Positions 4,878-33,427 of a DNA stretch of 64,000 nucleotides are shown in pieces. A program made the position numbers and the translations under genes. Origin of the DNA: PVC group bacterium (GTDB lineage: Bacteria > Omnitrophota > Gorgyraeia > B26-G9); contig JAAEQR010000142.1 of the NCBI GenBank assembly GCA_024231215.1, forward strand, positions 36,593 to 100,592. Reading direction: 5' to 3'. The number at the start of each line of letters is the position of its first letter. The stretch's first letter is position 1. The notes beneath the pieces are model-generated. The model was not told where the DNA came from. It was given only the letters and a program-made list of their open reading frames with translations, and searched no databases.

Positions 4878-5366
4878 ATGAAAAATATAATAAAAATAGT
4901 ATTAGTTTGTACAGTTATCCCGGTTTTTCTCTGTGCTTATAGGACTACTGATAGAGAAGAAAATGTGACTCAAAAATCAGAAGTTCCTACTACCCCTATT
5001 GTTGAATACGAAACAATCCCCCAGAACCACCAATCTCCCGAAGAATTGTATCTACATTATCATCTTATTATCGTAACCTCACTTGAAGAAGCGTCTACTA
5101 CTTTGGATGATAACCAATTTTGGGCATATGGGATGGGAACAAATGCATATCACTATTTAGAGCTACTCTGTGAACTTTTTAGTCCAGAGTATCAAAACAA
5201 ACTTACTCAGATATCCGAAAGTATTGCTGCCGCAACAGCTTATTTAAAAAAAGACAATCTAACCCAGATCCAAAAAAACAGGGTTAAACAAAAACTTAAG
5301 GATACAGCAAAAGTTTTGGATCGTGAGTATTCTTATGCTAAAATTGAAAACTGGTTGCAAAAATGA
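4878..5366 (+). CDS. Hypothetical secreted protein with N-terminal signal peptide
   Basis: Hydrophobic N-terminus MKNIIKIVLVCTVIPVFLCA. No recognizable domain. Confidence 0.5.
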   Translation: MKNIIKIVLVCTVIPVFLCAYRTTDREENVTQKSEVPTTPIVEYETIPQNHQSPEELYLHYHLIIVTSLEEASTTLDDNQFWAYGMGTNAYHYLELLCELFSPEYQNKLTQISESIAAATAYLKKDNLTQIQKNRVKQKLKDTAKVLDREYSYAKIENWLQK

Positions 5367-5953
5367 TTCTAAAATCAATAGCTGTTGGAGATTTGCAGGC
5401 AAATTGTTATATATTAGGTGATGAGCAGAGTAAAGAAGGGATTTTAATTGATCCCGGGGATGAGCCGACAAGAATAGAATCAGAATTAAAAGCAACGGGA
5501 ATATCATTAAAAGCTATTATTTTAACCCATGGTCACTTTGATCATACAGGTGCAGTAAATGCTTTTGATATCCCGGTATATCTGCACAAAGACGATGAGC
5601 GATTCTTAAGAATTAGCCTCTTGGGAGAAGATGTTATCGGAAATATCGACCAGTTGCAATTCTTAAACGATGGACAAAAGCTAAATTTTGGAACACTTAC
5701 TTTACACATAATACATACGCCGGGACATTCTCCCGGGGGCATTTGCTTACAGGTAGAAAATATTTTGTTTAGTGGCGATACACTGTTTGCTCAGGGAGTA
5801 GGCAGAACTGATTTACCGGGTGGTTCTTATCAGCAGCTATGTAGTTCACTTAAACATAAGTTGTTTATATTGGATGAGCATACAATTGTCTATCCCGGAC
5901 ATGGGCCACAAACAACAATAGGTGAAGAAAAAACAGGGAATTTTTACCTATGA
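5363..5953 (+). CDS. MBL-fold metallo-hydrolase (glyoxalase II-like)
   Basis: LTHGHFDHTGAV is the HxHxDH motif. Downstream metal-ligand HTPGHSPGG and GDTLF are present. There is an ATGA overlap with the upstream gene. Confidence 0.85.
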   Translation: MILKSIAVGDLQANCYILGDEQSKEGILIDPGDEPTRIESELKATGISLKAIILTHGHFDHTGAVNAFDIPVYLHKDDERFLRISLLGEDVIGNIDQLQFLNDGQKLNFGTLTLHIIHTPGHSPGGICLQVENILFSGDTLFAQGVGRTDLPGGSYQQLCSSLKHKLFILDEHTIVYPGHGPQTTIGEEKTGNFYL

Positions 5954-6474
5954 ATTTAACACGTAGAGAGATATTATTGTCTTTTATCTATCTTATTGTT
6001 GTAATTGGAATTGCATTATATTTTTTCTTTTACAAGTTTTTGTTTATTCGTCATAATAAAGTAAATACCCAAATAACATCTGTAGAAAATGCCCTGACAA
6101 AGATGAATTCGATTATGGCCAGCAAATCCATAGTCGAGAAAGAGTATAGTGTTTTTGAGAAAAAGCTATCTTCAGAAAAAGTAAAACAAACAGCCTCTAC
6201 GGAAATCTTGCAGGATATAAAAACAAAGGCAGCACAAGCCGGATTAAATGTTATTAATATAAAACCCTTTTTGTTGAAAAAAGAGGGGTTATACGGAGCG
6301 TTTGATTTTAAGTTAGAAACCGAAGGTACTCTTAAAAATATAGGTCAATTTCTATATAATCTTGATGATTCTCCGTATTTATTTACAATAAAGTACTTAC
6401 AAATGAATGCCCGGACTCAGGGGGAGCATTTGCAGGTACAGCTAATGTTAAGTGCTATTTTGGCGAAAGAGTGA
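5950..6474 (+). CDS. Pilus/T2SS assembly protein, PilO/GspM-like
   Basis: N-terminal TM helix, then a coiled-coil segment, then a small C-terminal alpha/beta domain. Lies directly upstream of the PilP-like and secretin genes with ATGA start overlap. Confidence 0.45.
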   Translation: MNLTRREILLSFIYLIVVIGIALYFFFYKFLFIRHNKVNTQITSVENALTKMNSIMASKSIVEKEYSVFEKKLSSEKVKQTASTEILQDIKTKAAQAGLNVINIKPFLLKKEGLYGAFDFKLETEGTLKNIGQFLYNLDDSPYLFTIKYLQMNARTQGEHLQVQLMLSAILAKE

Positions 6475-6478
6475 TATA

Positions 6479-6979
6479 ATGGGGGAAAAGATTACCACGA
6501 TTCCATATAAGCATCTACAGTGGTTTAATATTTTCAATATACTGCTTGTAGTATTTGCAATATTATTTGCCGGAGGGCTTCTTTGGCTGCAGTTTTTTTC
6601 CGAACCAAATATAGTTTTTAATTTTCGGCATCAAAACAGCATGTCTGAATCCGTGACGGGAATGAAATTCCTGAAAAAGCCCATGGATTATTATGAACGC
6701 ATTTTATCCCGCAAAAGATTATTTGTAGCACAGCCCGGGGTAAAACGTATTAAAAAGACAGGCCTATCTATGAGCCTGGATGTACTACTAGATGAGTTGC
6801 AATTGCAGGGAATTGTATCTGGGCCCCAAGGACCACAAGCTATTATTTTTAATGCAAAAACAAATCGTTCGCATTATTGTCAAGGCGGAGAAACAATTGG
6901 TGGCTTTATAGTAAAGGAAGTGCTACCTGATAAAGTAGTATTAGATAGAGATAACGAAGAGGTTGAATTGAAATTATGA
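6479..6979 (+). CDS. Pilus assembly protein, PilP-like
   Basis: N-terminal TM segment. C-terminal beta-sandwich-like region GIVSGPQGPQAIIFNAKTNRSHYCQGGETIGGFIVKEVLPDKVVLDRDNEEVELKL is typical of PilP. Stop overlaps the secretin start. Confidence 0.45.
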   Translation: MGEKITTIPYKHLQWFNIFNILLVVFAILFAGGLLWLQFFSEPNIVFNFRHQNSMSESVTGMKFLKKPMDYYERILSRKRLFVAQPGVKRIKKTGLSMSLDVLLDELQLQGIVSGPQGPQAIIFNAKTNRSHYCQGGETIGGFIVKEVLPDKVVLDRDNEEVELKL

Positions 6980-8478
6980 AATTCAAGATCATATGTTTAG
7001 TGCTTATATTCATGACTCTTACTGTCTCAGGATTACAGGCAGAAGATGCTACATCTTTACACATCAACTTAGATGTTAAAAATATGAGCATTATCGATGT
7101 ATTAAGATTATTAGCGGAACAGGGACAGGTGAACATTGTTGCCAGTAAAAATGTTCAGGGTCGAATCACGGCTAAATTACAAGGTATAACCGTAGAAGAA
7201 GCTTTAGGGGCAATTTTAGATGCAAATAACTTTATTTACAAAAAAGAAAATAATATCATAAAAGTGTATGCCCGGCAGGATATTTTGCAGCAGGAACAAA
7301 CCGAGAAATTAGTAAGCAGGGTATTTTTGCTTGTTCATATCAAGGCCACTGATTTTAGGCAAGTATTAAATTCCATAAAATCTGCAAGAGGACGAGTAGA
7401 AATTAATACAGTTTCTAATCAAGTAATTGTAACTGATACCTTGGAAAAGATGGCAGAAATAGAACAAATAATAGCCGATTCTGATATGAAAATGGTTACA
7501 AAAATTTATAATTTAAATTATGCTGATGCAAATAGCCTAAAAGATAAGCTTATAGAAATGATTCCGAAACAAGCCGGGGATGTTTTTGTTGATGAACGTA
7601 CAAATGGTATTGTTATAAGAGCAGTTTCAGAAACGATTGAGAAAGTTGATTTACTGATGCAAAGCTGGGATAAGCGTTCTTCCCAGGTATTGATTGAAGC
7701 AAAAATATTAGAAGTATCTTTAGATAAAACAAAAGGACTGGGAGTTAGCTGGGAATATCAATCAAGTTCCAATAACGATGCTACCAGTCTTTCTGCTAGT
7801 TTGCCGGCAAGCATAAGCGGCGGGGGCATTTTTAAGGTAGGAACATTAACACAAGATGAATATACAGTAACCATACAAGCGCTGGAAAGTTCTACTAATA
7901 CAAATATCCTATCCAACCCCAGGATTGTAGTGGTTGACAATACCGAAGCAAATATTTTAGTTGGAAGTGCGGAACCATACTTAGTTACTTATATTGACAA
8001 AGAAACTAATACCCAAACAGAAGAAACTAAATTTATTGATGTCGGAGTAAAGTTAAATGTTACTCCTAAAATCAGCAAAGACGATTATATTACCTTAAAG
8101 ATTCATCCAGAAGTAAGTTCTGCCAGAAGAGTAGCTGAAGTCAATAACGCTCTGGCGGTAGATACAACCCAAGCTGATACAACTGTGGTTGTGAAAAACG
8201 GACAAACCATTGTAATGGGGGGATTAATAAAAGACACCTCGTCAAAAGTCCAAGCCAAAGTTCCAGTTTTAGGTAGTATCCCGATTATCGGTTTGTTTTT
8301 CAGGAGTCACGCTACTGCAAAAATCAAGAAGGAAATAGTAGTTTTTATTACTCCTCATATTTTAGAAAACAGCGAAACTAGGATAACAGTTGGTGATAGA
8401 GAGCAGGCAATGAAACAAGCTATCCAGGAGGCTGCTAATAAATGGGATGAATGGGAAGGAGAAAAAGATTATGAATAA
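6976..8478 (+). CDS. pilQ: Secretin family outer-membrane channel (type IV pilus PilQ / T2SS GspD-like)
   Basis: Signal peptide plus an N0-like domain. C-terminal secretin core NPRIVVVDNTEANILVGSAEPYLVTY...VKNGQTIVMGGLI...VPVLGSIPIIGLFFRS. Confidence 0.85.
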   Translation: MKFKIICLVLIFMTLTVSGLQAEDATSLHINLDVKNMSIIDVLRLLAEQGQVNIVASKNVQGRITAKLQGITVEEALGAILDANNFIYKKENNIIKVYARQDILQQEQTEKLVSRVFLLVHIKATDFRQVLNSIKSARGRVEINTVSNQVIVTDTLEKMAEIEQIIADSDMKMVTKIYNLNYADANSLKDKLIEMIPKQAGDVFVDERTNGIVIRAVSETIEKVDLLMQSWDKRSSQVLIEAKILEVSLDKTKGLGVSWEYQSSSNNDATSLSASLPASISGGGIFKVGTLTQDEYTVTIQALESSTNTNILSNPRIVVVDNTEANILVGSAEPYLVTYIDKETNTQTEETKFIDVGVKLNVTPKISKDDYITLKIHPEVSSARRVAEVNNALAVDTTQADTTVVVKNGQTIVMGGLIKDTSSKVQAKVPVLGSIPIIGLFFRSHATAKIKKEIVVFITPHILENSETRITVGDREQAMKQAIQEAANKWDEWEGEKDYE

Positions 8479-9037
8479 TATAACACAAAGAGTGTGCGGA
8501 TTTTTTCTATTTATACTGGGCTGTGCTTTAATTATCCCGGGGATAGATTGTTATGGTATTATGCCGGCCCGAAGTCTGGAAGATATTACTCTTGCAGCAG
8601 ACAATATTGTTGTTGGCCAGGTTTTAGCTACTAACACTCTCTGGAATCAGGATAAGACTTTAATTGTTACCGAAGTAAAAGTATCTATTAGTGATGTAAT
8701 TAAAGGAGATTTTACGCAAGAAGTTTTAACCGTAGAATTTATCGGAGGGGAAATTGGAACAATAGGATTAAAAGTTTCAGATACTCCGGAGTTTCAGGCA
8801 AACGAAGAAATTGTGCTTTTTTCCAATAATATTAAAGATCGTCCTTTGGTGCAGAAAATCACGGGTAGGACTCAGGGTAAATGTAAAGTACAGGAAAATT
8901 TGGTTTCAAATATAAAAGAAGTTACAATAGCAGGCGGAAAAAAAGTTGACGATAACGGTCAAGTGTTTACGGAAGCATCAAAAACTATTCCATTAGATGT
9001 GTTTATTAGCGAAATAAAAGAGGTGCTTGTTAAGTAG
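8471..9037 (+). CDS. Hypothetical exported protein
   Basis: Hydrophobic N-terminus ITQRVCGFFLFILGCALIIPG. No recognizable domain. The start is ambiguous between 8447 and 8471. Confidence 0.45.
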   Translation: MNNITQRVCGFFLFILGCALIIPGIDCYGIMPARSLEDITLAADNIVVGQVLATNTLWNQDKTLIVTEVKVSISDVIKGDFTQEVLTVEFIGGEIGTIGLKVSDTPEFQANEEIVLFSNNIKDRPLVQKITGRTQGKCKVQENLVSNIKEVTIAGGKKVDDNGQVFTEASKTIPLDVFISEIKEVLVK

Positions 9038-9065
9038 CTCCGAGGAATAAGAGAGGAGGCATATA

Positions 9066-10316
9066 GTGAACTGCAAACGAAATGATTTATTCATATTGAC
9101 TTATTGCTTAATAATATTATTGGCTTTCCAAGCAAACGTGTTGGGGTACGGACTTACTGGTGCAAAATGGGCGGAGAGTGATTTCCCGGTCTCTTATTAT
9201 ATAAATCAAAGCGGTTCTGCCGATATTAGTGATGATAGTGAACTTACTGCAATCCGAACTTCTTTTCAAACCTGGACGAATGTTGCTGGAACAGATGCCA
9301 CGGTATCCGATCAGGGATTAACCGCAATTGAAGGAGGTGCTGGATATTCTAGTACTTACGATAGCTATAATGTTCTTTCCTGGGCAGAAGCTACAGGCAC
9401 AGCTTATACCATTGTTGAAGGTGCTCTTGCGGTTTGTATAACCTGGTACAATGTCGGAGGGACAGGATATATCTATGATTCAGATATAATTTTTAATGGG
9501 GTTGATTATACATGGACAACCACCGCTGTAGGCGGCGCAATGGACGTGCAAAATATCGCTACACATGAAATAGGACATTTTTTTGGACTAGGCGACTTGT
9601 ATGATGCAGCTGATTCTGAGAAAACTATGTATGGATACGGCTCAGCTAATGAAACTAAAAAAAGAAATTTACATGAAGATGATGTTAATGGAATAGCTTA
9701 TTTATATCCTTATGCCGGAATCCTTAATTTTAGTGCTAATAGTATTGGCTTGGCCGATAGCAGCTGGAATGTCTTAAGTTGGACAAATCCCCAAAAATCC
9801 ACATTTACAAAAACAATGATACGTTATCGCACCGATGGAGTTTACCCCACAAGTATCATCGAAGGAACACTGCTGGTAGAAAGAGCCGGAACAGTAAGCG
9901 CAACAGAAACTTATAATCATACAAATGTCAAAGCCAACACGACATACTATTACACAGCTTTTGCTTATGATTCAGTAAACGGATATAGGGAGACAGGTAT
10001 AACAAGTAAAGAAAGCGCTACTGTTTTTGGTGGCGGTGGAACAAGCGGAACAAGTAATAGCGAACGAAGCGATTGTTTTATAGCGACAGCTTGTTATGGT
10101 GATTATCATGCGCGGGAAGTATTAATATTACGCAAATTCAGGGATACTTGTTTATCCAAGGTCCAATCAGGAAGACAGTTTATTCAATCTTATTACCTGG
10201 TAGGCCCACACTTGGCCACAATAATTAATAATAACCCTAGCTTAAAAGAATTTGTACGAGCATATTTACAGCCAATTGTTAATATGGCTGAGTATTTTAC
10301 CACAGGAGGGCGCTAA
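9066..10316 (+). CDS. Secreted zinc metalloprotease, metzincin-type (HExxHxxGxxD), with an FN3-like domain and a conserved Cys-containing C-terminal module
   Basis: GTG start with RBS GAGGAGG. Signal peptide present. Catalytic HEIGHFFGLGD and a Met-turn-like TMYGYG. FN3-like middle region. C-terminus SDCFIATACYGDYHAREVLILRKFRD. Confidence 0.8.
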   Translation: MNCKRNDLFILTYCLIILLAFQANVLGYGLTGAKWAESDFPVSYYINQSGSADISDDSELTAIRTSFQTWTNVAGTDATVSDQGLTAIEGGAGYSSTYDSYNVLSWAEATGTAYTIVEGALAVCITWYNVGGTGYIYDSDIIFNGVDYTWTTTAVGGAMDVQNIATHEIGHFFGLGDLYDAADSEKTMYGYGSANETKKRNLHEDDVNGIAYLYPYAGILNFSANSIGLADSSWNVLSWTNPQKSTFTKTMIRYRTDGVYPTSIIEGTLLVERAGTVSATETYNHTNVKANTTYYYTAFAYDSVNGYRETGITSKESATVFGGGGTSGTSNSERSDCFIATACYGDYHAREVLILRKFRDTCLSKVQSGRQFIQSYYLVGPHLATIINNNPSLKEFVRAYLQPIVNMAEYFTTGGR

Positions 10317-10318
10317 TA

Positions 10319-11287
10319 ATGTTGAACAAATTTGGGCTATATATTTTTCTAATAACACTTGTTATACTGTTATCTATCTCCAGCTGTTTTGCGGCTGAAG
10401 GAGGCACTAGGCCTATTTCTATGGGAGGAGCGTTTGTTGCTATGGCTGACGATGCGCATGCAGCAACCTGGAATCCTGCAGGCATGGCATGGCAGGAAGA
10501 CTTTGAACTGAGCTATTCCGCTATTCTTACCAATAGAGATAAGTATATCAGCGGTGATTTTATCACCGACGATTATTTTGTTATATGTTCTCCTTTGAAA
10601 TCAGGGTATAAGCAAAATTTTGAATCACGTGGGGCATTTGGCATTTATTATCAGACGAGTGGATATCAACAAAACAGTACTGATACAAGTATAACTCAAC
10701 CAGGTATTTCGTATGCCCGAACAATGTTTGAAGATAACTTTGCTATAGGTATTGGAGCTAGCTACTATGATTTTGAGGTTGGTATTCCCGGAGCTAGTGA
10801 TAATGATACAGCTTTAAGTTATAATCTCGGATTTCTATGGTATCTCAATGATAAGATAACTCTGGGCTGTTTATGGGAAAACCTTAATGAACCATCCTAT
10901 TCTATTTTGGGCCTGGATAATCGGCTAACAAGAATATGGCGTCCGGGTGTTGCTTATTATTTTGATGAAGATACTGTTGTATCATTGGATATTTATGATC
11001 TTACGGGTAATACTGAAGACAAGGGTAGTGATTTTAGCCAGGATATCCGCATTGGATTTGAACATTATATGAAAGAGGATTTTTCAATACGTTTTGGCGC
11101 ACACCATCCTAATTCTAGTGTTGATTCTAGTAAATACTATTCTTTTGGAATGGGTTGGCAGCGTTCAGACTTTCTCGGAATGTACGCAGTGAATTATTAT
11201 CTAGATTATGGGTTTATATACTGGACAGATGTTCCAGCAGGCATGGAAGATTATATCCATCAATTAGGAGTAACATTAAAATTCTAA
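10319..11287 (+). CDS. Outer-membrane beta-barrel protein with a FadL/TodX (PorV-like) N-terminal motif
   Basis: Signal peptide. GGAFVAMADDAHAATWNPAGMA resembles the FadL/OMPP1 family N-terminal motif. Alternating amphipathic strands. The terminal residue is an aromatic Phe (..VTLKF). Confidence 0.6.
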   Translation: MLNKFGLYIFLITLVILLSISSCFAAEGGTRPISMGGAFVAMADDAHAATWNPAGMAWQEDFELSYSAILTNRDKYISGDFITDDYFVICSPLKSGYKQNFESRGAFGIYYQTSGYQQNSTDTSITQPGISYARTMFEDNFAIGIGASYYDFEVGIPGASDNDTALSYNLGFLWYLNDKITLGCLWENLNEPSYSILGLDNRLTRIWRPGVAYYFDEDTVVSLDIYDLTGNTEDKGSDFSQDIRIGFEHYMKEDFSIRFGAHHPNSSVDSSKYYSFGMGWQRSDFLGMYAVNYYLDYGFIYWTDVPAGMEDYIHQLGVTLKF

Positions 11288-11289
11288 AA

Positions 11290-12084
11290 ATGAAGAAAAA
11301 AATTACTTCTATAATATGTTTTGTAGTCATAATCTTTAATGCAGCCTTTATTCTTTTTTGTGTAAATAAACTAGTTGGCATTCGACAGGATCGTGTGATT
11401 ATACGAAAAGAAATAGCAGAATTAGCACGAGAAGATCAACTGATACTTCCTTCTAGTAACCCAACTTTCCCTGAGGATATCTCCATAGATCAAAACAAAG
11501 TGCTTGTTAAGGCTACTGCTTCGTTAACCCCAGACATTCCATTAAAATTGCTTGGTATTATTCAAGGCTCAAAAAACAAAGCAGTTATTGAGCTAATTAA
11601 TGAGAAAACCAATGTCATTTATAGTGAAGGCGATAAAATAGGCAAAATTCTAATTCAGAAAATATTTAAAGATAAAGTATTATTAAATATTCATGGAAAC
11701 ATTTATACGCTTGCGTTTGAAAACAGCCTTCCAGTTGAAGGAGAATTAAAAGTCCGATATTTATCTGACAATGAATTGCTTTTAAATAAAAAAACTCTTA
11801 GCTCTCACGTCCTTGATTTTGCAGGTGAAGCTAATAAATTGAAAATATCAAAAGCTGTAAATAAACAGGGGAAGGGACTAAAAGTCAGTCATATTCCACA
11901 GGACGGTTTAATTAGAGAATTAGGTTTACGTAATGATGATGTAATTAGAACCATTAACGGGATGCAAGTTGATAGTGTTCCTAAAGTTCTGTTCATAATG
12001 AACAAGTTAAAATCAACCCGCCTTATAGAGCTGGGTATAATTAGAAATGACCTGCCTTTGATGATGAAATATCAACTAATATAA
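11290..12084 (+). CDS. PDZ-domain inner-membrane protein, GspC/PilP-like
   Basis: ATG at 11290 gives MKKKITSIICFVVIIFNAAFILF, a TM segment. C-terminal PDZ GLIRELGLRNDDVIRTINGMQVDSV. The track ORF start at 11155 overlaps the upstream gene and is probably a 5' over-extension. Confidence 0.6.
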   Translation: MKKKITSIICFVVIIFNAAFILFCVNKLVGIRQDRVIIRKEIAELAREDQLILPSSNPTFPEDISIDQNKVLVKATASLTPDIPLKLLGIIQGSKNKAVIELINEKTNVIYSEGDKIGKILIQKIFKDKVLLNIHGNIYTLAFENSLPVEGELKVRYLSDNELLLNKKTLSSHVLDFAGEANKLKISKAVNKQGKGLKVSHIPQDGLIRELGLRNDDVIRTINGMQVDSVPKVLFIMNKLKSTRLIELGIIRNDLPLMMKYQLI

Positions 12085-12201: not shown

Positions 12202-12390
12202 ATGAATAACAATAATCTTTTTATTCAGAGACGGTTTCAGGTGCAGAAAGATTCTGGTAGCGTTCATTTTATGGGATCTATCTATATTGCTTATTATTTC
12301 TATCTCAACAGTGAATTATATGTCTCTAAATATGCCTTATGCATAAAGTTTACGAAAAAGGAATCAGAACTTAAACAATTAATGAGCTAA
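12202..12390 (+). CDS. Small hypothetical ORF (62 aa), possibly non-coding
   Basis: ORF only, in a 550-bp intergenic gap. Followed by an intrinsic terminator at 12422-12448. Confidence 0.2.
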   Translation: MNNNNLFIQRRFQVQKDSGSVHFMGSIYIAYYFYLNSELYVSKYALCIKFTKKESELKQLMS

Positions 12391-21983: not shown

Positions 21984-22021
21984 TTTTAATATAATTGTAG
22001 CTATACAGATAGGAATTGATT

Positions 22022-22474
22022 ATGGACGAAAATATACATTATCATCCTAAGGGAGAAGATACGGGAGAACGACGCAAGTTTTTACGTATCAACGCTAATT
22101 TTGTGGTTAGCTATCATGAACATCCGGGAAAAGTCAACAATACTGATATGACCTTAACTCGCAATATTAGTTTAGGCGGGATTTGTTTTACAAGTGACAA
22201 AGACTTTGAACTCGGGGCTATTTTAAAGATCATTTTGCGTTTGCCAAAAGTAACAAAACAAATAGAATTCTTAGGAGCAGTAGTTTCTACTAAGCAAGAA
22301 AATGGTAAAAATTCCATATTTGACATCGGGGTGAAATTTGTGGAAGCAGAGGAAGAAGACCTTTATATTTTGCAAAACATACTTAAAGAATGTGCTTCTT
22401 CTGGTAATAAAAATAATTTAATTATAAGTATAGAAGAAAAATCAGAAAAAGAAAAAAAAGATGAAGATAGTTAA
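22022..22474 (+). CDS. PilZ domain protein (c-di-GMP binding)
   Basis: RRKFLR is the RxxxR motif and NISLGGICF is the D/NxSxGG motif. A Lys/Glu-rich C-terminal tail. The ATG at 22022 is preferred. The track start is a TTG at 22016. Confidence 0.8.
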   Translation: MDENIHYHPKGEDTGERRKFLRINANFVVSYHEHPGKVNNTDMTLTRNISLGGICFTSDKDFELGAILKIILRLPKVTKQIEFLGAVVSTKQENGKNSIFDIGVKFVEAEEEDLYILQNILKECASSGNKNNLIISIEEKSEKEKKDEDS

Positions 22475-26420: not shown

Positions 26421-26546
26421 ATGAAAAAAATTCAAAAAAGGGATACACACATTATATTATTTATATTTTCTATATTATTATCTGAAACATCTATATTTTC
26501 TTTAACATATTATCTATTTATATATCAAATCAGGAGGCTAATATGA
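26421..26546 (+). CDS. Candidate 41-aa hydrophobic leader/uORF peptide, translationally coupled to the giant gene
   Basis: The ATG at 26421 gives MKKIQKRDTHIILFIFSILLSETSIFSLTYYLFIYQIRRLI. Its stop TGA overlaps the ATG of the downstream gene (ATGA at 26543-26546). The SD-like GGGAGGTGA is far from the start, about 11-14 nt. Not in the ORF track because it is under 60 aa. Confidence 0.25.
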   Translation: MKKIQKRDTHIILFIFSILLSETSIFSLTYYLFIYQIRRLI

Positions 26547-29500
26547 AAATCTTACGTTATTATACCCTTGCAGTTGTTTTTTGTTTCTTAGCAAATGTGA
26601 TCCTGTCAGTACCCGGTGCTAATGCCCAAACCCATGATGAGCTTTTAGATAGCGGGCTTAGCCAGGAAGTGTTACAAGGCTTATTCAATTCTAATGAGCC
26701 GATCAGTAATCAAAGTGACGCTGCCAATCTTTCCCAGAGTGAAATTGCACCGCCCCCTTTAGTTATCACTACATCCGGTGGTGACATTTATCTACTTCAA
26801 GGTGATGGTGTTAAAGCCAAGATGAAGATAGATCAGCAAGGCACTTTAGAAACAACCTATTCTCTTGACGGTGCTGACTACAAAATGATCAATGAGTTTG
26901 GTGAAGAATTTCATTATGAATACTCCCCGGACGGACAAACAGTACAAATTCTAAATGCCAATAACGAAGTTGTTGGAGAACACTCATTTGAATTGGGCAA
27001 AGCAACCGCATTTTCCGCCCAGGGCAAAATAACTTACCAATATTCTGATGATGGACTTAATCGCTTAGTGACCTCCACAGATGAATGGGGCAATGTTACT
27101 CATTATGACGACTTAAGCCGTCCCACAACAATTACAGACACAGATGGCAACGTTGTCGGAGAATACAAGTTTGATTCTAAGGGTCGGATGCAATCTTTTA
27201 CCGATCGTACCGGAAATGTCACAGTTTTTAATTCCGACGGAATCCGTCCTTTATATACTAAAAATGCACAAGGCACAAAAACTCAGGAATACCGTTATGA
27301 TAGCGACGGACATCTTGACGCGGTAATGAATATTACCAATGGACAAATAACCGAAGTAGAAAATGGATATTACACAGTAACTTATGATACAGTTGAAGTG
27401 CTCAATGATGACGGCACTGTAATGACTGATGAAAACGGTGAAGCAGTACTTGAATATGTTGCAGTCGGCGTATATTCTTATGATACGGCTGGAAATGTAG
27501 AATCTGTTAGCGATCTTGGAATGGGAGGAGTAATTACAGGCTTTACAGAGTATGATGATTACGGAAGAGTTTGTGCTTCCTATAATGCTGAAGGCACTAA
27601 GGTTCAAGAATACAAATATAATGAACATGGTTTCTTGGAAATGACTATATCACTGGGAGCAGTTGATCCATTGGCTGGAGAGCAAACTGTTTTAACTTAT
27701 ACAATATTTGACGGTAATGGTCGTCCAAGTGAAGTATGGCAGCTTGGTGATGGGGAAAACGACAAGATAAAAATCCAAGAATACGTGTATAAAGAAAATG
27801 GTCTTCTGGATATAACCGTTTCTTATGGTATAGAACGGGATGATCAAGGAAATGCAGTACTTAATGATGCCGGAAACTACATTTATTTTGAAACATCAAA
27901 AACTGTTTATGATAAAAAAGGCCGTCCTGAAGCTGTATATGGGATGGTTCGCAATGAAGCTAGCGAATTAGTTGTAGATAGCGATGGAAAACCGGTGCTG
28001 GAGATACAGCAAAAGTACGTCTATAATAAGGAAGGTTTTTTATCTAAAACGATATCTTACGGATTTAACGGTGCAAAAACAGGAGAAACAGTATTTGACG
28101 CATACAGCCGTCCGGTAGAATCTTATAATAGCACCGGGGCTTTAACCCAAACCTATACTTATCGTGAAGACGGTTTCTTAGCTCAAACTTCCAATTATGG
28201 AGACGCGGGAACATTAACCGGATATACACTATATGATGCAAAGGGCAAACCTACCGATGTATTTAATCATGAAGGCAGTCTTGTCCAAAAATATATATAT
28301 GATGAAAATGGTTCAATGATAATGAGCTTAAGCTTATCTTCCGAAGAAGGTGTGAATGACTTAATAGCTGCTACAATTCAGGATAAAACTGCCATTGCTG
28401 ATCTATGGAATAGCGATTGGGATTCAACTTATGACTTTCTTGATCCTGACAATAAGCTTACTTCAGAATATTTAACTTCTGTTGCATGGACAGCTTTAGC
28501 TGACGGTGATATTGAAAAAGCAAAAGCATTTACATTAAAATGCATCCAGACTTTTTCAGGAGAAGCTTTGTCTCAGCAAAAAAGTTTAGATGAACTACCA
28601 ACCGGGCCTGGAATTTCCCAAAATTGGGCCGTAAATGATGTTGGTACTTGTTATAATATTCTAGGTTTGGCTTTAGAGGAAGAAGGCGCTGTTGATGCCG
28701 CAGTAAGCGCATATAAAATACAAGCTTCTGATTTTGGCTATGCACAGGCCTATGACCCGGCAGAAGGCAGCTATTGGCTGGTAAGCGACGGGTCTAAAAA
28801 ACAGTTAGGAGAACTAAACGTAGAAACATCTGTTGTAACTGGATACACTATGTTTGGTGGAGACTCAAAACCAGTTGCTTCATATCAGTTTTATGAAAAA
28901 TTCGATGAGAATGGAGTAAGCCTTGGTGTGCAGGCAACAAAAGTGCAGGAATATGTATACTCCTATGAAGGTAAAACAAAAAATAAGGAAACCGGAGAAT
29001 ATTCAATGGTAACAAAATACTCTGGTTTTGTGCAAAAAACCAGCAACTATGGAGATTTCGATGCTGATACCGGAGAGCAGGTCGTAACCGGTTATACTGT
29101 GTTTGATAAGCTTGGACGTCAACAAAAAACATATAACGACGAAGATCAAGCTGTTCAATCCTACCAATATTCAAATGAAGGTTTTTTAAAAAGCACTGTT
29201 AGTTATGGCCAAAATGGCGTAAGAACAGGAACTACTATTTTTGATAGCTATTCACGTCCAGTTGCCAGCTTCAATATGATGGGTACAAGTACTGGCAAGA
29301 TGCCTAAATCATTTATCCAGGCTCTTAGTAATGGATTAACTAACGAAGAATTAAGTTCTCAAGAATGGCAGCCTTACTTAAAAGGCCTCAGTCAAACCTT
29401 TGAATACGGTAGTGATGGATTCTTAAGCAGCAGCAAATCTTATGGAGAAGCCATAGAAATCAAGGTTACTGATTTTGACGGATTTGCTTCATCTATGGGA

Positions 29501-32500
29501 TCCAGGAAAGGCGATGCTGAATATAAAGCTAAGTATGATTTCAACGAAGATGGAAGTATCAATACAGCAGATATGACTATCTTTAACGACGCCTTTTCCG
29601 GCATAATGGAATTCTCCGAGACTTATGGCTCTACATCAGACGGTCCTGGTCTTTACTTAGCGAAATATGATTATGACAGCGATGGAGATGTAGACAAAAC
29701 GGATCTAAGAGTATTCGCTAAGACATTTGAAAATACAGCAAAATACAGCCCTACCTGGACTGGAGTAACTCACTATGATAAATATGGGAAGGCTGACAAA
29801 GTAATCAATGTTATTACAGACGAGGATGGAAATCCGACTGAAGGTATTATGGTACAACAATATGAATATAATACCCGCGGTTTCATGGAAAAATCTGTTT
29901 CCTATGGAGTTGTAACAGACGATAATGGCACTATAATTATGGATGGAGATACTCCAATTGCCTTGGCCACTGGATACACATTGTTTGATGCTAAATCTCG
30001 GCCGGTATCTACATATAGTATTTATTCTTCTGCTACAACACAACCTCAAGAATCCAAAGTCCAGGATTATGTATATGAAGAAGGTTTTTTAGTTAAAACC
30101 GTCAACTATGGAGATATTGATGCAGAAACAGGTAATGCGGTAGAAACCGGATATACTGAATTTGATAGATATGGGCGTCAAACAGTATCGTATAATGAAT
30201 CCGATCAAAAAGTATCAACATTTAAATATTCTTCCCAGGGCTTTTTGAACGAAACATATAACTACGGAAAAAACGGAGCATTCCAGGGAAAAACAACATT
30301 TAATAAGAGTGGTCGCCCTGTAGAAGCCTACAACATGTATGCAAGTAGAAACGGCAAAGAAACCGGGTTGACTCAAAAATTTAACTACAATGAATATGGC
30401 CTTATGAGTCATAGTGAAACTTTTGGAGAAAACCAGACTCTAACCGGAACAACGTATTATAATGGTTATGGAAAAGGTTTACGGGTAGAAAACGAAAAAG
30501 GCTTTGTTATTTCCTCTTATCATTATAACGAACGCGGTTTTATGGAAAAAACACAAAGTCTTGCTTTTGTAGAAGTAACTGACCCGGAAGAGATCGCACA
30601 GCTTCAAGACAGCGGACTGTATGTAGAAATCACAACAACAGACGATAGTACTAATGAAACAGTAACAGCCGGCGGATTTTACGCAGTAACCGGTCATACA
30701 GAATTCGACGCATATTCACGTCCCACAGACTCCTACCAATGCTACTGGGATACTCAAGGGGAAGGTGAAAGAGTTAAAGTTCAGGAATACAAGTACGAAG
30801 ATGGCTTCTTAGTAGAAACTATAACTTTAGGCAGACCGGATGAAACAGGAGCTCAACAGCAAACAGGCCGTACTGAATTTGACAAGTATGGACGTCAGGT
30901 AGCATCATATAATGAATTTGATGAGCTTACAACAAAATACAAATACTCTACTCAAGGGTTTCTCTCAGGAACCAGCAACCATGGAGCACGTGGAGTTATT
31001 ACCGGTAAAACTGAAATCGGAGCTTTAGGAAAACCAACTGGAGCTTATAATCAAAAAGGAACCTTAGTTCAGTCTTTCAACTATGATAGTGTTACCGGTC
31101 AATTAACCGGAAGCACATCTTATGGAGAACCTGATGCCGAAACCGGAAATCCTACATTAACCGGTACTACTACATATGATGCCTATGGTAAAGCAACTGC
31201 AGCATATAATGATAAAGGAGCTCAAGTACAAAAATATGTATACGATAACCAGGGATTTATGTTAGAAACCGTTAGCCTGGGCGATGACATAGGACAAGGC
31301 CCGGTAGAAACAGGCCGAACAGTGTATGATCATGCCAGCCGGCCAATGGAATCTTATACTATCTCAGCTAGCGGAGTAGAAACTAAAGTTCAGGTATTTG
31401 TATACAATAGTGCAGTTAATTTATCTAATTATGAACAATATATTGCAAATCCAACTGATGCTCAGTTTGCAGAGACGGAAACCGGGTTCTTGACGACTAC
31501 ATTCAGTCATGGCAAAAATAACCACTTGGCTGGGTATACGAAGTTCAATAACTATGGACAACAAGAAGCATCATATAATGAGTTTGATGAGATGACTGTT
31601 GCATTCAAATATTCCAAGTCAGGCTTCATGACTGAATCCTGGAATTACACTATCAACAAAACTCGTACAGGTGTAACCTCATATAGTGCAACAGGAAGGC
31701 CAGACGCTTCATATAATGAAAAAGGCGCTGTAATCCAGGAATTCAATTACAATGACAATGGGTTTTTGGTATCTACAAACGGTTATGGAGATCTGGATGA
31801 AAACGGTGATCCTACATTAACACAAACCACACATTATGATGAATTTGGAAAACAAACACATAGCATGAATATAGATGGTGCTATTTCCCAAACTTTCCAT
31901 TATGATGATGCTGGTTTTCTTGAAAGATCAACCGGCTGGGCACAACGTGAAGATACTCCGGATACTCTTATCTGGTATGAAGTCTTAGATCAAGGATATG
32001 CCGTGGAAACTAGTTATACACTGTACAATGATGCATCCAGACCTTCTGAATCATACAGTGTATATGAAGGTGCCTCTGGAAAAACAGAAATGAAAACACA
32101 AGAGTTTATTTACAACACAGGCGTTGATGAAACCAATTATCAGGCATACATGGAAAATCCAGAAGCATTCAGCGAGACTGTAACCGGATTCATGACACAG
32201 TCTGTAACTTTCGCTCTAAATAACAGCAGTGTAGATGCGGAAGGAAATCTTGTATTTACCGATTCTTACTCACACGTAGATGAAGAAAGCGGTATTACTA
32301 CTGCCAATGAATTAGGCTCTGAAGTAATTGTCTCTGGGTTGACTTCGTACAATCGATATGGTCGTCCGGATACAACTTACAATCATGAGGGGCAAAAAGT
32401 TTCCGTAAGTAAGTACAATCAAAACGGTTTCCTGCAACAAACTGAAAATTACGGAGATAACGGTGCTATTACCGGTAAATTGCTATACAACGCAGCTGGC

Positions 32501-33427
32501 AGACCAACCGAAGCATTAAACCACAAAAACGTCAAAGTAACAGAATACTTCTATAACGATCAAGGTGGGTTAGACGTTACTTTAAACTACAACAATGGAA
32601 CTATAACCCAAAGAACAGAATATGACATATATTCTAAGGCAACAGCTTCTTACCAGCTTTTCTCAGGAAAAGAAGGTAACAAATTTGGAGAACAGCAGGG
32701 ATATCAATATGATGCCTCAGGAACCGCTAACTATGATGTAAATAATCCTACTGCACGTGGCAGCGGAACATTAACCCAGCAAAGTTACTATAATGAATTC
32801 GGGTTAATGAAGGCTTCTGTTACTTACGGAAGAAGTGGAAAAGAGACCAGTTATGTTGTATTCGATAAATATCAAAGACCAGTTGAAGTATATAACATAT
32901 CTCCTGATAATCAAAACGGTCGCGATACAATTTTGTCCAGCATCATTGTGCAAAGCGAAAACGTTTATACGGGAGAAGCTGCTGCTAACCTGGGATCAGC
33001 TAGAGTTCAAAGCTACAACTATAATGCAAATGGCTTTATGACCTCAACGATCTCTTATCAGAGATCAAAGGACTACGATGATCAGGGTAATCCGGTGGCT
33101 GACGGAACTTGGGAAAAAGAAACCTCAATCACTTACTATGCAAGTAACGGGCAACAAATAAACACATTCTTGCTAAAAGATGGGGTACAGGCTAATCTCG
33201 CAAAACCTGATCACACAGTCGGTGCAAAACAAGCTGAATACAAGTACAACACTAATGGGTTCTTAGACAGAGCCTATAATTATCAGGATAATTCTCAGAC
33301 AGGATACACCAAATATGATGATAGCGGAAGACAAACAACAAGCTACAATGATAAAGGCACTGCTGTCAATGCTTACTGGTATAATTCAAATGGGTTCTTG
33401 ATTGGTAGTACCTCGCTGGGACAGTAG
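26543..33427 (+). CDS. Giant secreted repeat protein (2,294 aa). Built from about 40 degenerate YD/RHS-like repeats with a central dockerin-like Ca-binding pair. Putative surface or extracellular protein.
   Basis: Signal peptide MKILRYYTLAVVFCFLANVILSVPGANAQ. Recurring unit of about 45 aa: TGYTxFDxYGRQxxSYNExDQxVxxYKYSxxGFLxxTxNYGxNG. Dockerin-like segments KYDFNEDGSINTADMTIFNDAF and KYDYDSDGDVDKTDLRVFAKTF. Cys-free and rich in G, Y, T and N. SD CAGGAGG precedes the ATG. Confidence 0.85.
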   Translation: MKILRYYTLAVVFCFLANVILSVPGANAQTHDELLDSGLSQEVLQGLFNSNEPISNQSDAANLSQSEIAPPPLVITTSGGDIYLLQGDGVKAKMKIDQQGTLETTYSLDGADYKMINEFGEEFHYEYSPDGQTVQILNANNEVVGEHSFELGKATAFSAQGKITYQYSDDGLNRLVTSTDEWGNVTHYDDLSRPTTITDTDGNVVGEYKFDSKGRMQSFTDRTGNVTVFNSDGIRPLYTKNAQGTKTQEYRYDSDGHLDAVMNITNGQITEVENGYYTVTYDTVEVLNDDGTVMTDENGEAVLEYVAVGVYSYDTAGNVESVSDLGMGGVITGFTEYDDYGRVCASYNAEGTKVQEYKYNEHGFLEMTISLGAVDPLAGEQTVLTYTIFDGNGRPSEVWQLGDGENDKIKIQEYVYKENGLLDITVSYGIERDDQGNAVLNDAGNYIYFETSKTVYDKKGRPEAVYGMVRNEASELVVDSDGKPVLEIQQKYVYNKEGFLSKTISYGFNGAKTGETVFDAYSRPVESYNSTGALTQTYTYREDGFLAQTSNYGDAGTLTGYTLYDAKGKPTDVFNHEGSLVQKYIYDENGSMIMSLSLSSEEGVNDLIAATIQDKTAIADLWNSDWDSTYDFLDPDNKLTSEYLTSVAWTALADGDIEKAKAFTLKCIQTFSGEALSQQKSLDELPTGPGISQNWAVNDVGTCYNILGLALEEEGAVDAAVSAYKIQASDFGYAQAYDPAEGSYWLVSDGSKKQLGELNVETSVVTGYTMFGGDSKPVASYQFYEKFDENGVSLGVQATKVQEYVYSYEGKTKNKETGEYSMVTKYSGFVQKTSNYGDFDADTGEQVVTGYTVFDKLGRQQKTYNDEDQAVQSYQYSNEGFLKSTVSYGQNGVRTGTTIFDSYSRPVASFNMMGTSTGKMPKSFIQALSNGLTNEELSSQEWQPYLKGLSQTFEYGSDGFLSSSKSYGEAIEIKVTDFDGFASSMGSRKGDAEYKAKYDFNEDGSINTADMTIFNDAFSGIMEFSETYGSTSDGPGLYLAKYDYDSDGDVDKTDLRVFAKTFENTAKYSPTWTGVTHYDKYGKADKVINVITDEDGNPTEGIMVQQYEYNTRGFMEKSVSYGVVTDDNGTIIMDGDTPIALATGYTLFDAKSRPVSTYSIYSSATTQPQESKVQDYVYEEGFLVKTVNYGDIDAETGNAVETGYTEFDRYGRQTVSYNESDQKVSTFKYSSQGFLNETYNYGKNGAFQGKTTFNKSGRPVEAYNMYASRNGKETGLTQKFNYNEYGLMSHSETFGENQTLTGTTYYNGYGKGLRVENEKGFVISSYHYNERGFMEKTQSLAFVEVTDPEEIAQLQDSGLYVEITTTDDSTNETVTAGGFYAVTGHTEFDAYSRPTDSYQCYWDTQGEGERVKVQEYKYEDGFLVETITLGRPDETGAQQQTGRTEFDKYGRQVASYNEFDELTTKYKYSTQGFLSGTSNHGARGVITGKTEIGALGKPTGAYNQKGTLVQSFNYDSVTGQLTGSTSYGEPDAETGNPTLTGTTTYDAYGKATAAYNDKGAQVQKYVYDNQGFMLETVSLGDDIGQGPVETGRTVYDHASRPMESYTISASGVETKVQVFVYNSAVNLSNYEQYIANPTDAQFAETETGFLTTTFSHGKNNHLAGYTKFNNYGQQEASYNEFDEMTVAFKYSKSGFMTESWNYTINKTRTGVTSYSATGRPDASYNEKGAVIQEFNYNDNGFLVSTNGYGDLDENGDPTLTQTTHYDEFGKQTHSMNIDGAISQTFHYDDAGFLERSTGWAQREDTPDTLIWYEVLDQGYAVETSYTLYNDASRPSESYSVYEGASGKTEMKTQEFIYNTGVDETNYQAYMENPEAFSETVTGFMTQSVTFALNNSSVDAEGNLVFTDSYSHVDEESGITTANELGSEVIVSGLTSYNRYGRPDTTYNHEGQKVSVSKYNQNGFLQQTENYGDNGAITGKLLYNAAGRPTEALNHKNVKVTEYFYNDQGGLDVTLNYNNGTITQRTEYDIYSKATASYQLFSGKEGNKFGEQQGYQYDASGTANYDVNNPTARGSGTLTQQSYYNEFGLMKASVTYGRSGKETSYVVFDKYQRPVEVYNISPDNQNGRDTILSSIIVQSENVYTGEAAANLGSARVQSYNYNANGFMTSTISYQRSKDYDDQGNPVADGTWEKETSITYYASNGQQINTFLLKDGVQANLAKPDHTVGAKQAEYKYNTNGFLDRAYNYQDNSQTGYTKYDDSGRQTTSYNDKGTAVNAYWYNSNGFLIGSTSLGQ

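Follow-up and report, generated by a model that had tools for sequence, protein, structure and literature searches.

A protease with an exchangeable head and a predicted FadL/PorV-fold barrel are a conserved pair in a secretin operon of Omnitrophota

Why would a secreted protease with a conserved C-terminal domain be encoded directly beside a small outer-membrane barrel, downstream of a secretin gene? The question is raised by an operon in a 64,000-nucleotide stretch of contig JAAEQR010000142.1 (positions 36,593 to 100,592 of the forward strand), here called the window, which comes from a PVC-group genome of the phylum Omnitrophota that was assembled from a metagenome. The genes run in the order PilO/GspM-like, GspC-HR-like, secretin, protease unit, barrel and GspC-PDZ, and our finding concerns the distal half of this operon. 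The barrel protein is GY853_07220 of 'PVC group bacterium' (100% identity), and nearly all of its close relatives are annotated as Candidatus Omnitrophota. Bacteria of this phylum are abundant, uncultivated and often ultra-small, and some of their lineages are reportedly host-dependent or prey on other cells. An earlier note on this DNA had proposed that the protease and the barrel may be a pair of cargo and shuttle, and that the C-terminal module of the protease could be an export or anchoring tag following the logic of the T9SS (type IX secretion system), with its cargo C-terminal domain (CTD) and its barrel PorV. We find that the protease and the barrel form a tightly conserved, lineage-specific Omnitrophota pair, which works like a T9SS CTD-PorV system but is not one.

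The protease unit, its barrel and the genes that flank them

The protease (416 aa; 9066–10316, + strand) comprises a head, a fibronectin type III (FN3)-like domain, a linker and a terminal domain of the CFI-box-CTERM family, hereafter the CFI-box. The signal peptide and M10 metzincin head occupy 9066–9725 (+), with a match to Pfam Peptidase_M10 (PF00413) of 43.5 bits (cutoff 24) over residues 35–214. The zinc motif HEIGHFFGLGD, in which an Asp replaces the third His of HExxHxxGxxH, lies at residues 167–177 (9564–9596), and the Met-turn TMYGYG at residues 187–192 (9624–9641). The best PDB sequence matches of the head are MMP catalytic domains, and as judged from its sequence the head is a matrixin-type metzincin. 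We rejected membership in the family of the myxosortase-dependent metalloprotease MXAN_2677/2678, since the protease scores 81.8 bits against model NF041905, below its equivalog cutoff of 250, and its tail is a CFI-box and not MXYO-CTERM.

The FN3-like domain (residues ~221–315; Pfam fn3 E=0.015, sub-threshold) and a Gly/Ser-rich linker span 9726–10073 (+) and form the first part of a stalk that is constant among the relatives described below. The stalk ends with the CFI-box (10074–10316, +), which matches NF041770 with 80.9 bits (cutoff 40) over residues 337–405 of 416, all 69 model positions being covered, and which contains CFIATACYG...LRKFRD at residues 337–360 (10074–10145). The protein terminates in ...TTGGR, 3 residues past the match to our local CFI-box profile hidden Markov model (HMM) and 11 past that to NF041770, and no transmembrane helix or hydrophobic tail follows the box. 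The zinc motif, the Met-turn, the FN3-like domain and the CFI-type module had all been read in the earlier note, and each is found at the place given there.

The barrel gene (322 aa; 10319–11287, +) starts 2 nt after the stop codon of the protease. The protein contains GGAFVAMADDAHAATWNPAGMA at residues 36–57, and its N-terminal hatch motif WNPAG (10469–10483) is invariant in 32 aligned sequences. Among curated HMMs, it scores 49.4 bits against the PorV/PorQ family NF033709 (cutoff 90), 19.2 against T9SS PorV NF033710 (cutoff 250), 32.3 against PorV2 NF052325 (cutoff 325) and, over residues 40–86 only, 24.3 against Toluene_X PF03349 (cutoff 29.7). An AlphaFold2 model (pLDDT 86.7) displays about 14 strands by DSSP together with the N-terminal hatch. 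Using Foldseek, we matched this model to FadL (3DWO, E 3.3e-10) and TodX (3BRZ, E 8.5e-8); the top TM-scores among the matches listed belong to T9SS PorV (6H3I_F, 0.66/0.62; 8GL6_F, 0.63/0.56), and the Bacteroidota BamG chains 9HJM_F and 9HIV_F are also among the fold matches. The model thus places the barrel in the FadL/PorV fold. This agrees with the FadL/TodX/PorV likeness that the earlier note had drawn from the N-terminal motif; the HMM assignment it had called for gave PorV/PorQ and Toluene_X, both sub-threshold.

Contig look-ups and a barrel-seeded metagenome scan yielded 14 orthologous loci including the window, with barrels that are 49–67% identical to that of the window, depending on the measure. 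Local HMMs showed that in 14/14 loci the gene immediately upstream of the barrel encodes a protease whose C-terminal end is made up of FN3-like domain, Gly/Ser linker and CFI-box. The protease stop and the barrel start overlap or lie 1–4 nt apart in the five loci that were read, and the barrel is probably translationally coupled to the protease gene. The head of the protease is not the same throughout: five loci encode an M10 head (the window, L001, L003, L095 and L172), and nine a gingipain-type Peptidase_C25 head (L004, L005, L089–L092 and L169–L171). The full-length C25 proteins that were scanned score 193–210 bits against Peptidase_C25, each with its own Propeptide_C25, while the CFI-box of the C25-headed relatives reaches 71.6–79.4 bits against NF041770. 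Identity of these heads with PorU was considered and rejected, the scores against NF033707 (48.6–72.5 bits; cutoff 420) being explained by the generic C25 model and Propeptide_C25; against the PorU2 model, C25-headed versions score 52 bits.

The tails of both head types align up to the C-terminus, beginning shortly ahead of the FN3-like block. Over the last 195 residues (FN3, linker and CFI-box), M10 and C25 proteins are 35–55% identical, with one close pair at 87%. In the tail tree, the M10-headed loci make up a single clade; in the barrel tree, they group together with one C25 locus. These sequence comparisons fit one replacement of the head, with tail and barrel inherited vertically as a unit.

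Upstream of the M10 protease lies the gene of a 196-aa exported accessory protein, here called u190 (8447–9037, +), which begins inside the 3' end of the secretin gene. Position 8471, from which the earlier note had counted the region, is an internal ATG of this gene. No Pfam or NCBIfam family and no PDB entry matched u190. Its own HMM matches only the window, L001, L003 and L095 and no C25-head locus, and the protein is therefore seen only alongside M10 heads (4 of 5 M10 loci); at the fifth, L172, the contig does not reach the place upstream of the protease where the gene would stand. Running the u190 profile against C25-headed proteins revealed no sequence similarity to the C25 propeptide, with no dedicated pairwise comparison made. 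From architecture, u190 may be a latency or inhibitor partner of the M10 head, and both head versions may bring a latency device, either as a propeptide within the protein (C25) or as a separate exported protein (M10).

The pair is flanked by genes of secretion type. The secretin (6976–8478, +) comprises STN, Secretin_N and Secretin domains (Pfam 35.7, 65.3 and 163.3 bits, respectively) and reaches the cutoff of neither subtype, GspD or PilQ, with 261.9 bits against GspD TIGR02517 (cutoff 351) and 261.2 against PilQ (cutoff 284). It stands directly upstream of the protease unit in 10/10 loci that extend far enough. On the other side, a GspC-like protein (11290–12084, +) combines a hydrophobic N-terminal transmembrane segment, read by eye, with a T2SSC HR match at residues 82–143 and a PDZ domain at residues 192–255. 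Its matches are all sub-threshold: GspC_delta NF041515 59.6 bits (cutoff 150), TIGR01713 41.9 (101.6), T2SSC PF11356 25.8 (27) and PDZ_2 19.7. This GspC-PDZ gene follows the barrel in six loci (the window, L001, L003, L172, L089 and L090), among which both head types are represented. Both flanking genes had been recognised before, the one as a secretin and the other as a GspC/PilP-like protein with a transmembrane segment and a PDZ domain, and our domain searches bear this out.

The CFI-box and its neighbours elsewhere

Is the CFI-box, then, generally linked to barrels of this kind? The module is NCBIfam family NF041770 (CFI_box_CTERM), and a full-text literature search for CFI-box-CTERM, CFI-box and CFIATA found no paper on it; it is a known, curated domain for which we found no published study. 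Word-indexed homologue searches were near-empty, returning 3 matches for the 91-aa tail and the query alone for the GspC-PDZ protein. A HMMER profile search of 1.84 billion cluster representatives, on the other hand, matched 27,637 of them at E<=1e-3 and 17,638 at E<=1e-10. The module had been described as recurrent and poorly characterised, and with about 27,600 clusters in many phyla it is indeed far from unique to this protein. In 145 of the 150 best listed matches it ends no more than about 20 residues from the C-terminus, and the other five have 31–1050 residues after it.

Scanning genomes with a CFI-box alignment, we confirmed 588 of 600 candidate stretches among the matches listed and kept 80 loci. 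They span Bacteroidota, Proteobacteria, Myxococcota, Nitrospirota, Planctomycetota and Omnitrophota, and also include assemblies of Dehalococcoidia/Chloroflexi, Parcubacteria, Saccharibacteria and Firmicutes, groups that are generally regarded as lacking an outer membrane. In most of the secreted proteins of this sample, the box is followed by a transmembrane segment and basic tail of 25–40 aa, which is not part of the NF041770 model. The box also terminates small proteins of Zn-ribbon-like, Sel1/TPR-like and DnaJ-like types, as judged by eye, in which no signal peptide could be seen by eye; the domain is therefore not confined to exported proteins. Cases of this kind are found at L009, L014, L016 and L023 and in proteins P0125, P0130, P0132 and P0148. 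Two ORFs (open reading frames), P0124 (2009 aa) and P0126 (1142 aa), each hold two full units of signal-peptide-like start, passenger, Gly-rich linker, CFI-box and transmembrane tail, and are either tandem genes that run together where a stop codon is missing or true proteins of two units.

An AlphaFold2 model of the CFI-box, computed from a 46-sequence alignment, consists of four helices (pLDDT 83.7), and neither its sequence nor its fold gave a significant PDB match. The domain thus models as all-helical, unlike the CTDs of the T9SS, which are β-sandwiches (PMC11285876).

We probed co-occurrence of module and barrel from both sides with barrel HMMs that detect homologues down to about 25% identity. 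The barrel family of the window was found within 6 kb of the CFI-box in 0/80 loci, and a CFI-box ORF in 0/75 loci of distant barrels (30% identity or less, flanks of up to 7 kb fetched). A general link between the two is thereby rejected. The census of the module and its neighbours that the earlier note had suggested as a check therefore turned out against it: export by a C-terminal tag in the manner of CTD and PorV finds no support in co-occurrence, in the helical model of the module or in the window, where we detected no T9SS family or core component among the scanned ORFs. Of its pair of cargo and shuttle, the adjacency holds in all 14 orthologous loci, and the wider link between module and barrel does not. 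Literature searches on PorV2/PorU2 and on Omnitrophota and the T9SS found nothing relevant among the hits examined. Distant homologues of the barrel in Firmicutes assemblies sit in unrelated gene contexts. One of them, 29% identical to the window's barrel, closes a cluster of TamB, BamA, Skp, an unknown gene and LpxD at L006 (1–8969), a Firmicutes assembly that evidently carries outer-membrane genes; the arrangement recalls the BamA-associated, FadL-like BamG of Bacteroidota.

The neighbours in the 80 CFI-box loci were clustered all-vs-all. No recurrent enzyme neighbour that could be a cognate 'sortase' emerged from this clustering, and neighbour clusters of 8 to 11 loci look by eye like spurious out-of-frame ORFs over a conserved high-GC gene family. 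Two other kinds of neighbour did recur. In L043 and L080 (Omnitrophota), L050 (Brocadiaceae) and L075 (Hydrogenedentes), a GspC with T2SSC and PDZ matches above the Pfam cutoffs is encoded directly downstream of a large CFI-box protein (L043, 803–8312; L080, 340–7018; L050, 1–9599; L075, 1–12206), and in L050 and L075 a GspD secretin follows gspC. At L032 and L046, too, secretin genes lie beside CFI-box genes. L043 additionally carries a PilO-HR-secretin-GspC-PDZ cluster like that of the window, without the protease and the barrel, which suggests that the pair was inserted into a pre-existing secretin operon.

The second recurrent neighbour is an outer-membrane β-barrel of the MXAN_2562 family, encoded immediately downstream of the CFI-box gene in L020, L028, L033, L040, L077 and L086 and, in L068, sharing one stop-free reading frame with the CFI-box protein (7 loci in all). 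The two members scanned with NCBIfam reach 128 and 235 bits for NF040596 (cutoff 100), and the loci represent several proteobacterial classes and related phyla. We rejected homology of these barrels to that of the window (hhalign probability 0.1%). The counts for gspC/gspD (4/80) and MXAN_2562 (7/80) are small and serve as leads, not statistics; a secretin was also seen in 1/75 control loci. As leads, adjacency to gspC/gspD across several phyla and to MXAN_2562 barrels points to a more general association of the CFI-box than that with the barrel family of the window. Since other CFI-box passengers match 'choice-of-anchor' domains and myxosortase- or rhombosortase-dependent M36 peptidases in NCBIfam, families that by name bear other CTERM anchors, the CFI-box stands where a domain for anchoring or sorting stands at the C-terminus of such proteins.

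These are the first genomic leads that we have found for CFI-box-CTERM: it adjoins gspC-gspD and two unrelated barrel families, and it occurs in lineages regarded as having no outer membrane and on apparently cytoplasmic proteins. Its role thereby becomes testable.

A possible export-and-hold route and its rivals

An outer membrane is to be expected in the source organism, because the window encodes Kdo (3-deoxy-D-manno-octulosonate) and lipopolysaccharide (LPS)-transport genes and a TonB-like gene. The reading that we prefer, to which we give a probability of roughly 0.45, is that of a secretin-linked, modular protease docked at the outer membrane with a dedicated barrel partner. The protease would be exported by Sec to the periplasm and would then pass through the adjacent secretin/GspC route, which resembles the T2SS (type II secretion system), to the outer membrane or the cell surface. 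There, the constant stalk of FN3-like domain and CFI-box would be captured by the FadL/PorV-fold barrel as its docking partner, and the head, either M10 with the separate 196-aa protein or C25 with its own propeptide, would be the exchangeable part. This reading is supported by the pairing in 14/14 loci through the head swap, by the tight spacing, by the secretin upstream in 10/10 loci and by the presence of GspC-PDZ with both heads. The FadL/PorV fold modelled for the barrel also speaks for it, as do the gspC/gspD genes and MXAN_2562 barrels that adjoin CFI-box genes elsewhere. That the barrel may act as a docking platform is suggested by precedents, since FadL-type barrels hold surface proteins in BamG-BamH and in PorV, and BamG2-BamH2, a pair of paralogues, share an operon (PMC12578637).

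Several points weigh against it. From the observed gene content, family and fold assignments, synteny, head swap and module distribution, we infer the contact between stalk and barrel, the export route and the surface exposure, and the genes could have stayed side by side for the sake of shared regulation and not because their products bind. Six of the 14 loci (L004, L005, L091, L092, L169 and L170) lack the GspC-PDZ gene, and in L171 it was not detected. Both the barrel and the GspC-like protein fall under the curated cutoffs for PorV, FadL and GspC. The CFI-box loci without such a barrel include six other Omnitrophota loci, and, given its occurrence on apparently cytoplasmic proteins, the box cannot in general be a dedicated outer-membrane docking module. 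Finally, the window does not hold a recognisable full T2SS: the secretin is below the GspD equivalog cutoff, and no pilin or pseudopilin, no GspE ATPase and no GspF platform gene was found among the scanned ORFs of the 64 kb, though these may lie elsewhere in the genome.

The last point bears equally on a rather doubtful alternative, in which the protease is a T2SS-type cargo, the CFI-box a generic C-terminal domain for anchoring or sorting, comparable to the 'choice-of-anchor' domains, and GspC-PDZ an adaptor for export through the adjacent secretin. Here the barrel would be no receptor; it would take up hydrophobic products of proteolysis or serve as an accessory of the secretin or the outer membrane. 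Such a role fits the gspC or gspC-gspD genes that follow CFI-box genes elsewhere, the secretins near CFI-box genes in L032 and L046 and the CTERM anchors of related passengers. The FadL-type hatch, invariant as it is, would suit a transport function, and L043 retains its secretin cluster and GspC-PDZ with neither protease nor barrel. This alternative leaves unexplained why the constant tail keeps the barrel, tightly spaced, in 14/14 loci although heads were swapped. Genes for a T2SS ATPase or pseudopilins do not occur nearby, and the sample of gspC-adjacent boxes is small (4/80). That the protease instead is a periplasmic housekeeping or pilus-related enzyme, acting for example on secretin or pilus components, with barrel and GspC-like genes co-transcribed without interaction, seems to us improbable. 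The operon does stand amid housekeeping genes and holds PilO-, PilP- and PilQ-like genes, and a CFI-box without a transmembrane tail could leave the protease soluble in the periplasm. Yet the exchange of two unrelated protease classes suggests generic degradation and not specific processing, possible latency devices such as the C25 propeptide or a separate accessory protein would be typical of exported degradative proteases, and the tight coupling to the barrel is again left unexplained.

The two remaining alternatives borrow from the T9SS. In Bacteroidota, the porU gene adjoins porV, and PorU retains a CTD of its own. An attachment complex modelled on PorU and PorV, in which a barrel-anchored, sortase-like protease cleaves or attaches other CFI-box proteins, would fit this precedent; C25-headed versions match the PorU sortase model (70–72 bits) as well as PorU2, and Omnitrophota encode other large CFI-box proteins (L043, L080 and L081). 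We nonetheless regard it as very improbable. A sortase-like mechanism needs a covalent acyl-enzyme intermediate, which metalloproteases do not form, and the swap between a cysteine peptidase and a zinc metalloprotease would be hard to square with an acyl-enzyme transpeptidase. Because C25 and M10 heads are interchangeable and the PorU scores, far under the cutoff of 420, are accounted for by generic models, a PorU-like role is unlikely; no T9SS context was found in the window either. The general model of the earlier note, a CTD-like tag recognised by PorV-like shuttle barrels across lineages, is largely refuted and hardly credible any longer. The best TM-scores to PorV, the weak PorV/PorQ and PorV2 matches and the locally conserved pairing had spoken for it. 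The counts of 0/80 and 0/75 decide against it, together with the presence of the module in assemblies of Dehalococcoidia, Parcubacteria, Saccharibacteria and Firmicutes and on proteins without a signal peptide, the difference between its all-α model and the β-sandwich CTDs, the sub-cutoff scores of all PorV models and the lack of T9SS core genes among the window ORFs scanned.

The preferred reading of a docked, modular protease is best seen beside known systems. With PorV and its CTD cargo, or PorU-PorV, the operon shares a small FadL-fold barrel (compare 6H3I_F and 8GL6_F) encoded beside a protease with a conserved C-terminal domain, which has a C25 head in nine loci. It differs in that the C-terminal domain models as all-helical and is not generally barrel-linked, the barrel is below the PorV cutoffs, the neighbours are a secretin and GspC-like proteins instead of SprA/PorKLMN, and the phylum is Omnitrophota. 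T9SS proteins with a type-B CTD are encoded adjacent to a dedicated PorP/SprF-like barrel, which has been proposed to anchor the cargo at the surface (PMC9143113). The likeness lies in a cargo gene beside its own outer-membrane barrel gene; here the barrel family and the tag fold are different, no T9SS is seen, and the adjacency is confined to one orthologous locus. BamG-BamH resembles the pair through the BamG chains among the fold matches of the barrel. In that system, a lipoprotein is the barrel's partner and both belong to BAM. The window locus has no linkage to BamA, although the distant homologue at L006 sits by TamB, BamA and Skp.

A further parallel is given by the MXAN_2561/MXAN_2562 pairs (NF045522/NF040596), in which a small outer-membrane barrel comes after a secreted protein that is anchored by its C-terminus, as at the seven CFI-box loci; their barrel is unrelated to that of the window, the passengers are others, and the transmembrane tail is mostly kept on those CFI-box proteins. 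GlyGly-CTERM with rhombosortase (found on T2SS cargo such as V. cholerae VesB), MXYO-CTERM and PEP-CTERM are C-terminal sorting or anchor domains that go with export through secretins and retention at the surface. The M10 head has its resemblance to MXAN_2677/2678, and a giant CFI-box protein resembles the myxosortase- or rhombosortase-dependent M36 peptidases. Unlike these short tripartite signals, the CFI-box is a folded domain of ~70 aa that lacks the transmembrane tail at the window locus, and our clustering of 80 loci associated it with no cognate sortase or recurrent enzyme.

Taken together with its secretin, the plug-and-play protease and its dedicated FadL/PorV-fold barrel suggest a compact export-and-hold route at the outer membrane, one that works like PorU/PorV or the cargo/PorP pairs but is made from different parts. 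A bolder extension, which we consider unlikely, is that the CFI-box is a widespread signal marking folded periplasmic proteins for export through GspC-PDZ and secretin and for retention on dedicated barrels, with the Omnitrophota operon as the most compact case, uniting cargo, adaptor, pore and anchor. If this were true, T2SS-type systems would gain a recognisable cargo tag, which to our knowledge has long been missing.

Other genes of the operon and the window

The proximal half of the operon begins with a PilO/GspM-like bitopic inner-membrane protein (5950–6474, +; Pfam PilO 30.1 bits, cutoff 22; T2SSM_b 26.8, cutoff 21.7), kept in every locus with upstream sequence. It is followed by a GspC-HR/PilP-like protein (6452–6979, +; Pfam T2SSC 28.4 bits, cutoff 27) with a transmembrane segment and an HR domain and no PDZ domain, whose gene is conserved upstream of the secretin across loci. 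Two further genes, which may belong to the same operon, stand before the pilO-like gene in all orthologous loci that are long. One encodes a 162-aa protein with a hydrophobic N-terminus (4878–5366, +), for which NCBIfam gave no match and Pfam only a chance-level one (E 0.028), with none at cutoff; a gene of 161–163 aa occupies the same position in L001, L003, L004, L005, L169 and L170. The other encodes an MBL-fold, glyoxalase II-like hydrolase (5363–5953, +; TIGR03413 90.7 bits, below cutoff) that is syntenic with the cluster, a Lactamase_B gene being kept upstream of pilO in all long loci.

Downstream, the 540-bp gap after the GspC-PDZ gene contains an ORF of 62 aa (12202–12390, +; MNNNNLFIQRRFQVQ...YIAYYFY...YVSKYALC), whose membership in the cluster is uncertain. 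Small ORFs of 63–76 aa were called at this position in L002–L005 and L169–L172, in both M10 and C25 clades; the translations from L004 and L005 are similar by eye, and the other small ORFs are matched by position and length only. The genes that follow are of housekeeping type, with an M16 peptidase, rpe, pgm, lepA, lepB and others.

Further along the window, we identified a c-di-GMP-I-GGC riboswitch (RF03167; 26232–26353, +; 67.9 bits, gathering score 59). It lies ~190 nt upstream of the gene for a secreted giant protein of 2294 aa (26543–33427), whose sole family match is a weak dockerin, and a PilZ-domain protein is encoded nearby (22016–22474). The riboswitch and the nearby PilZ gene suggest that this giant surface protein is under c-di-GMP control.

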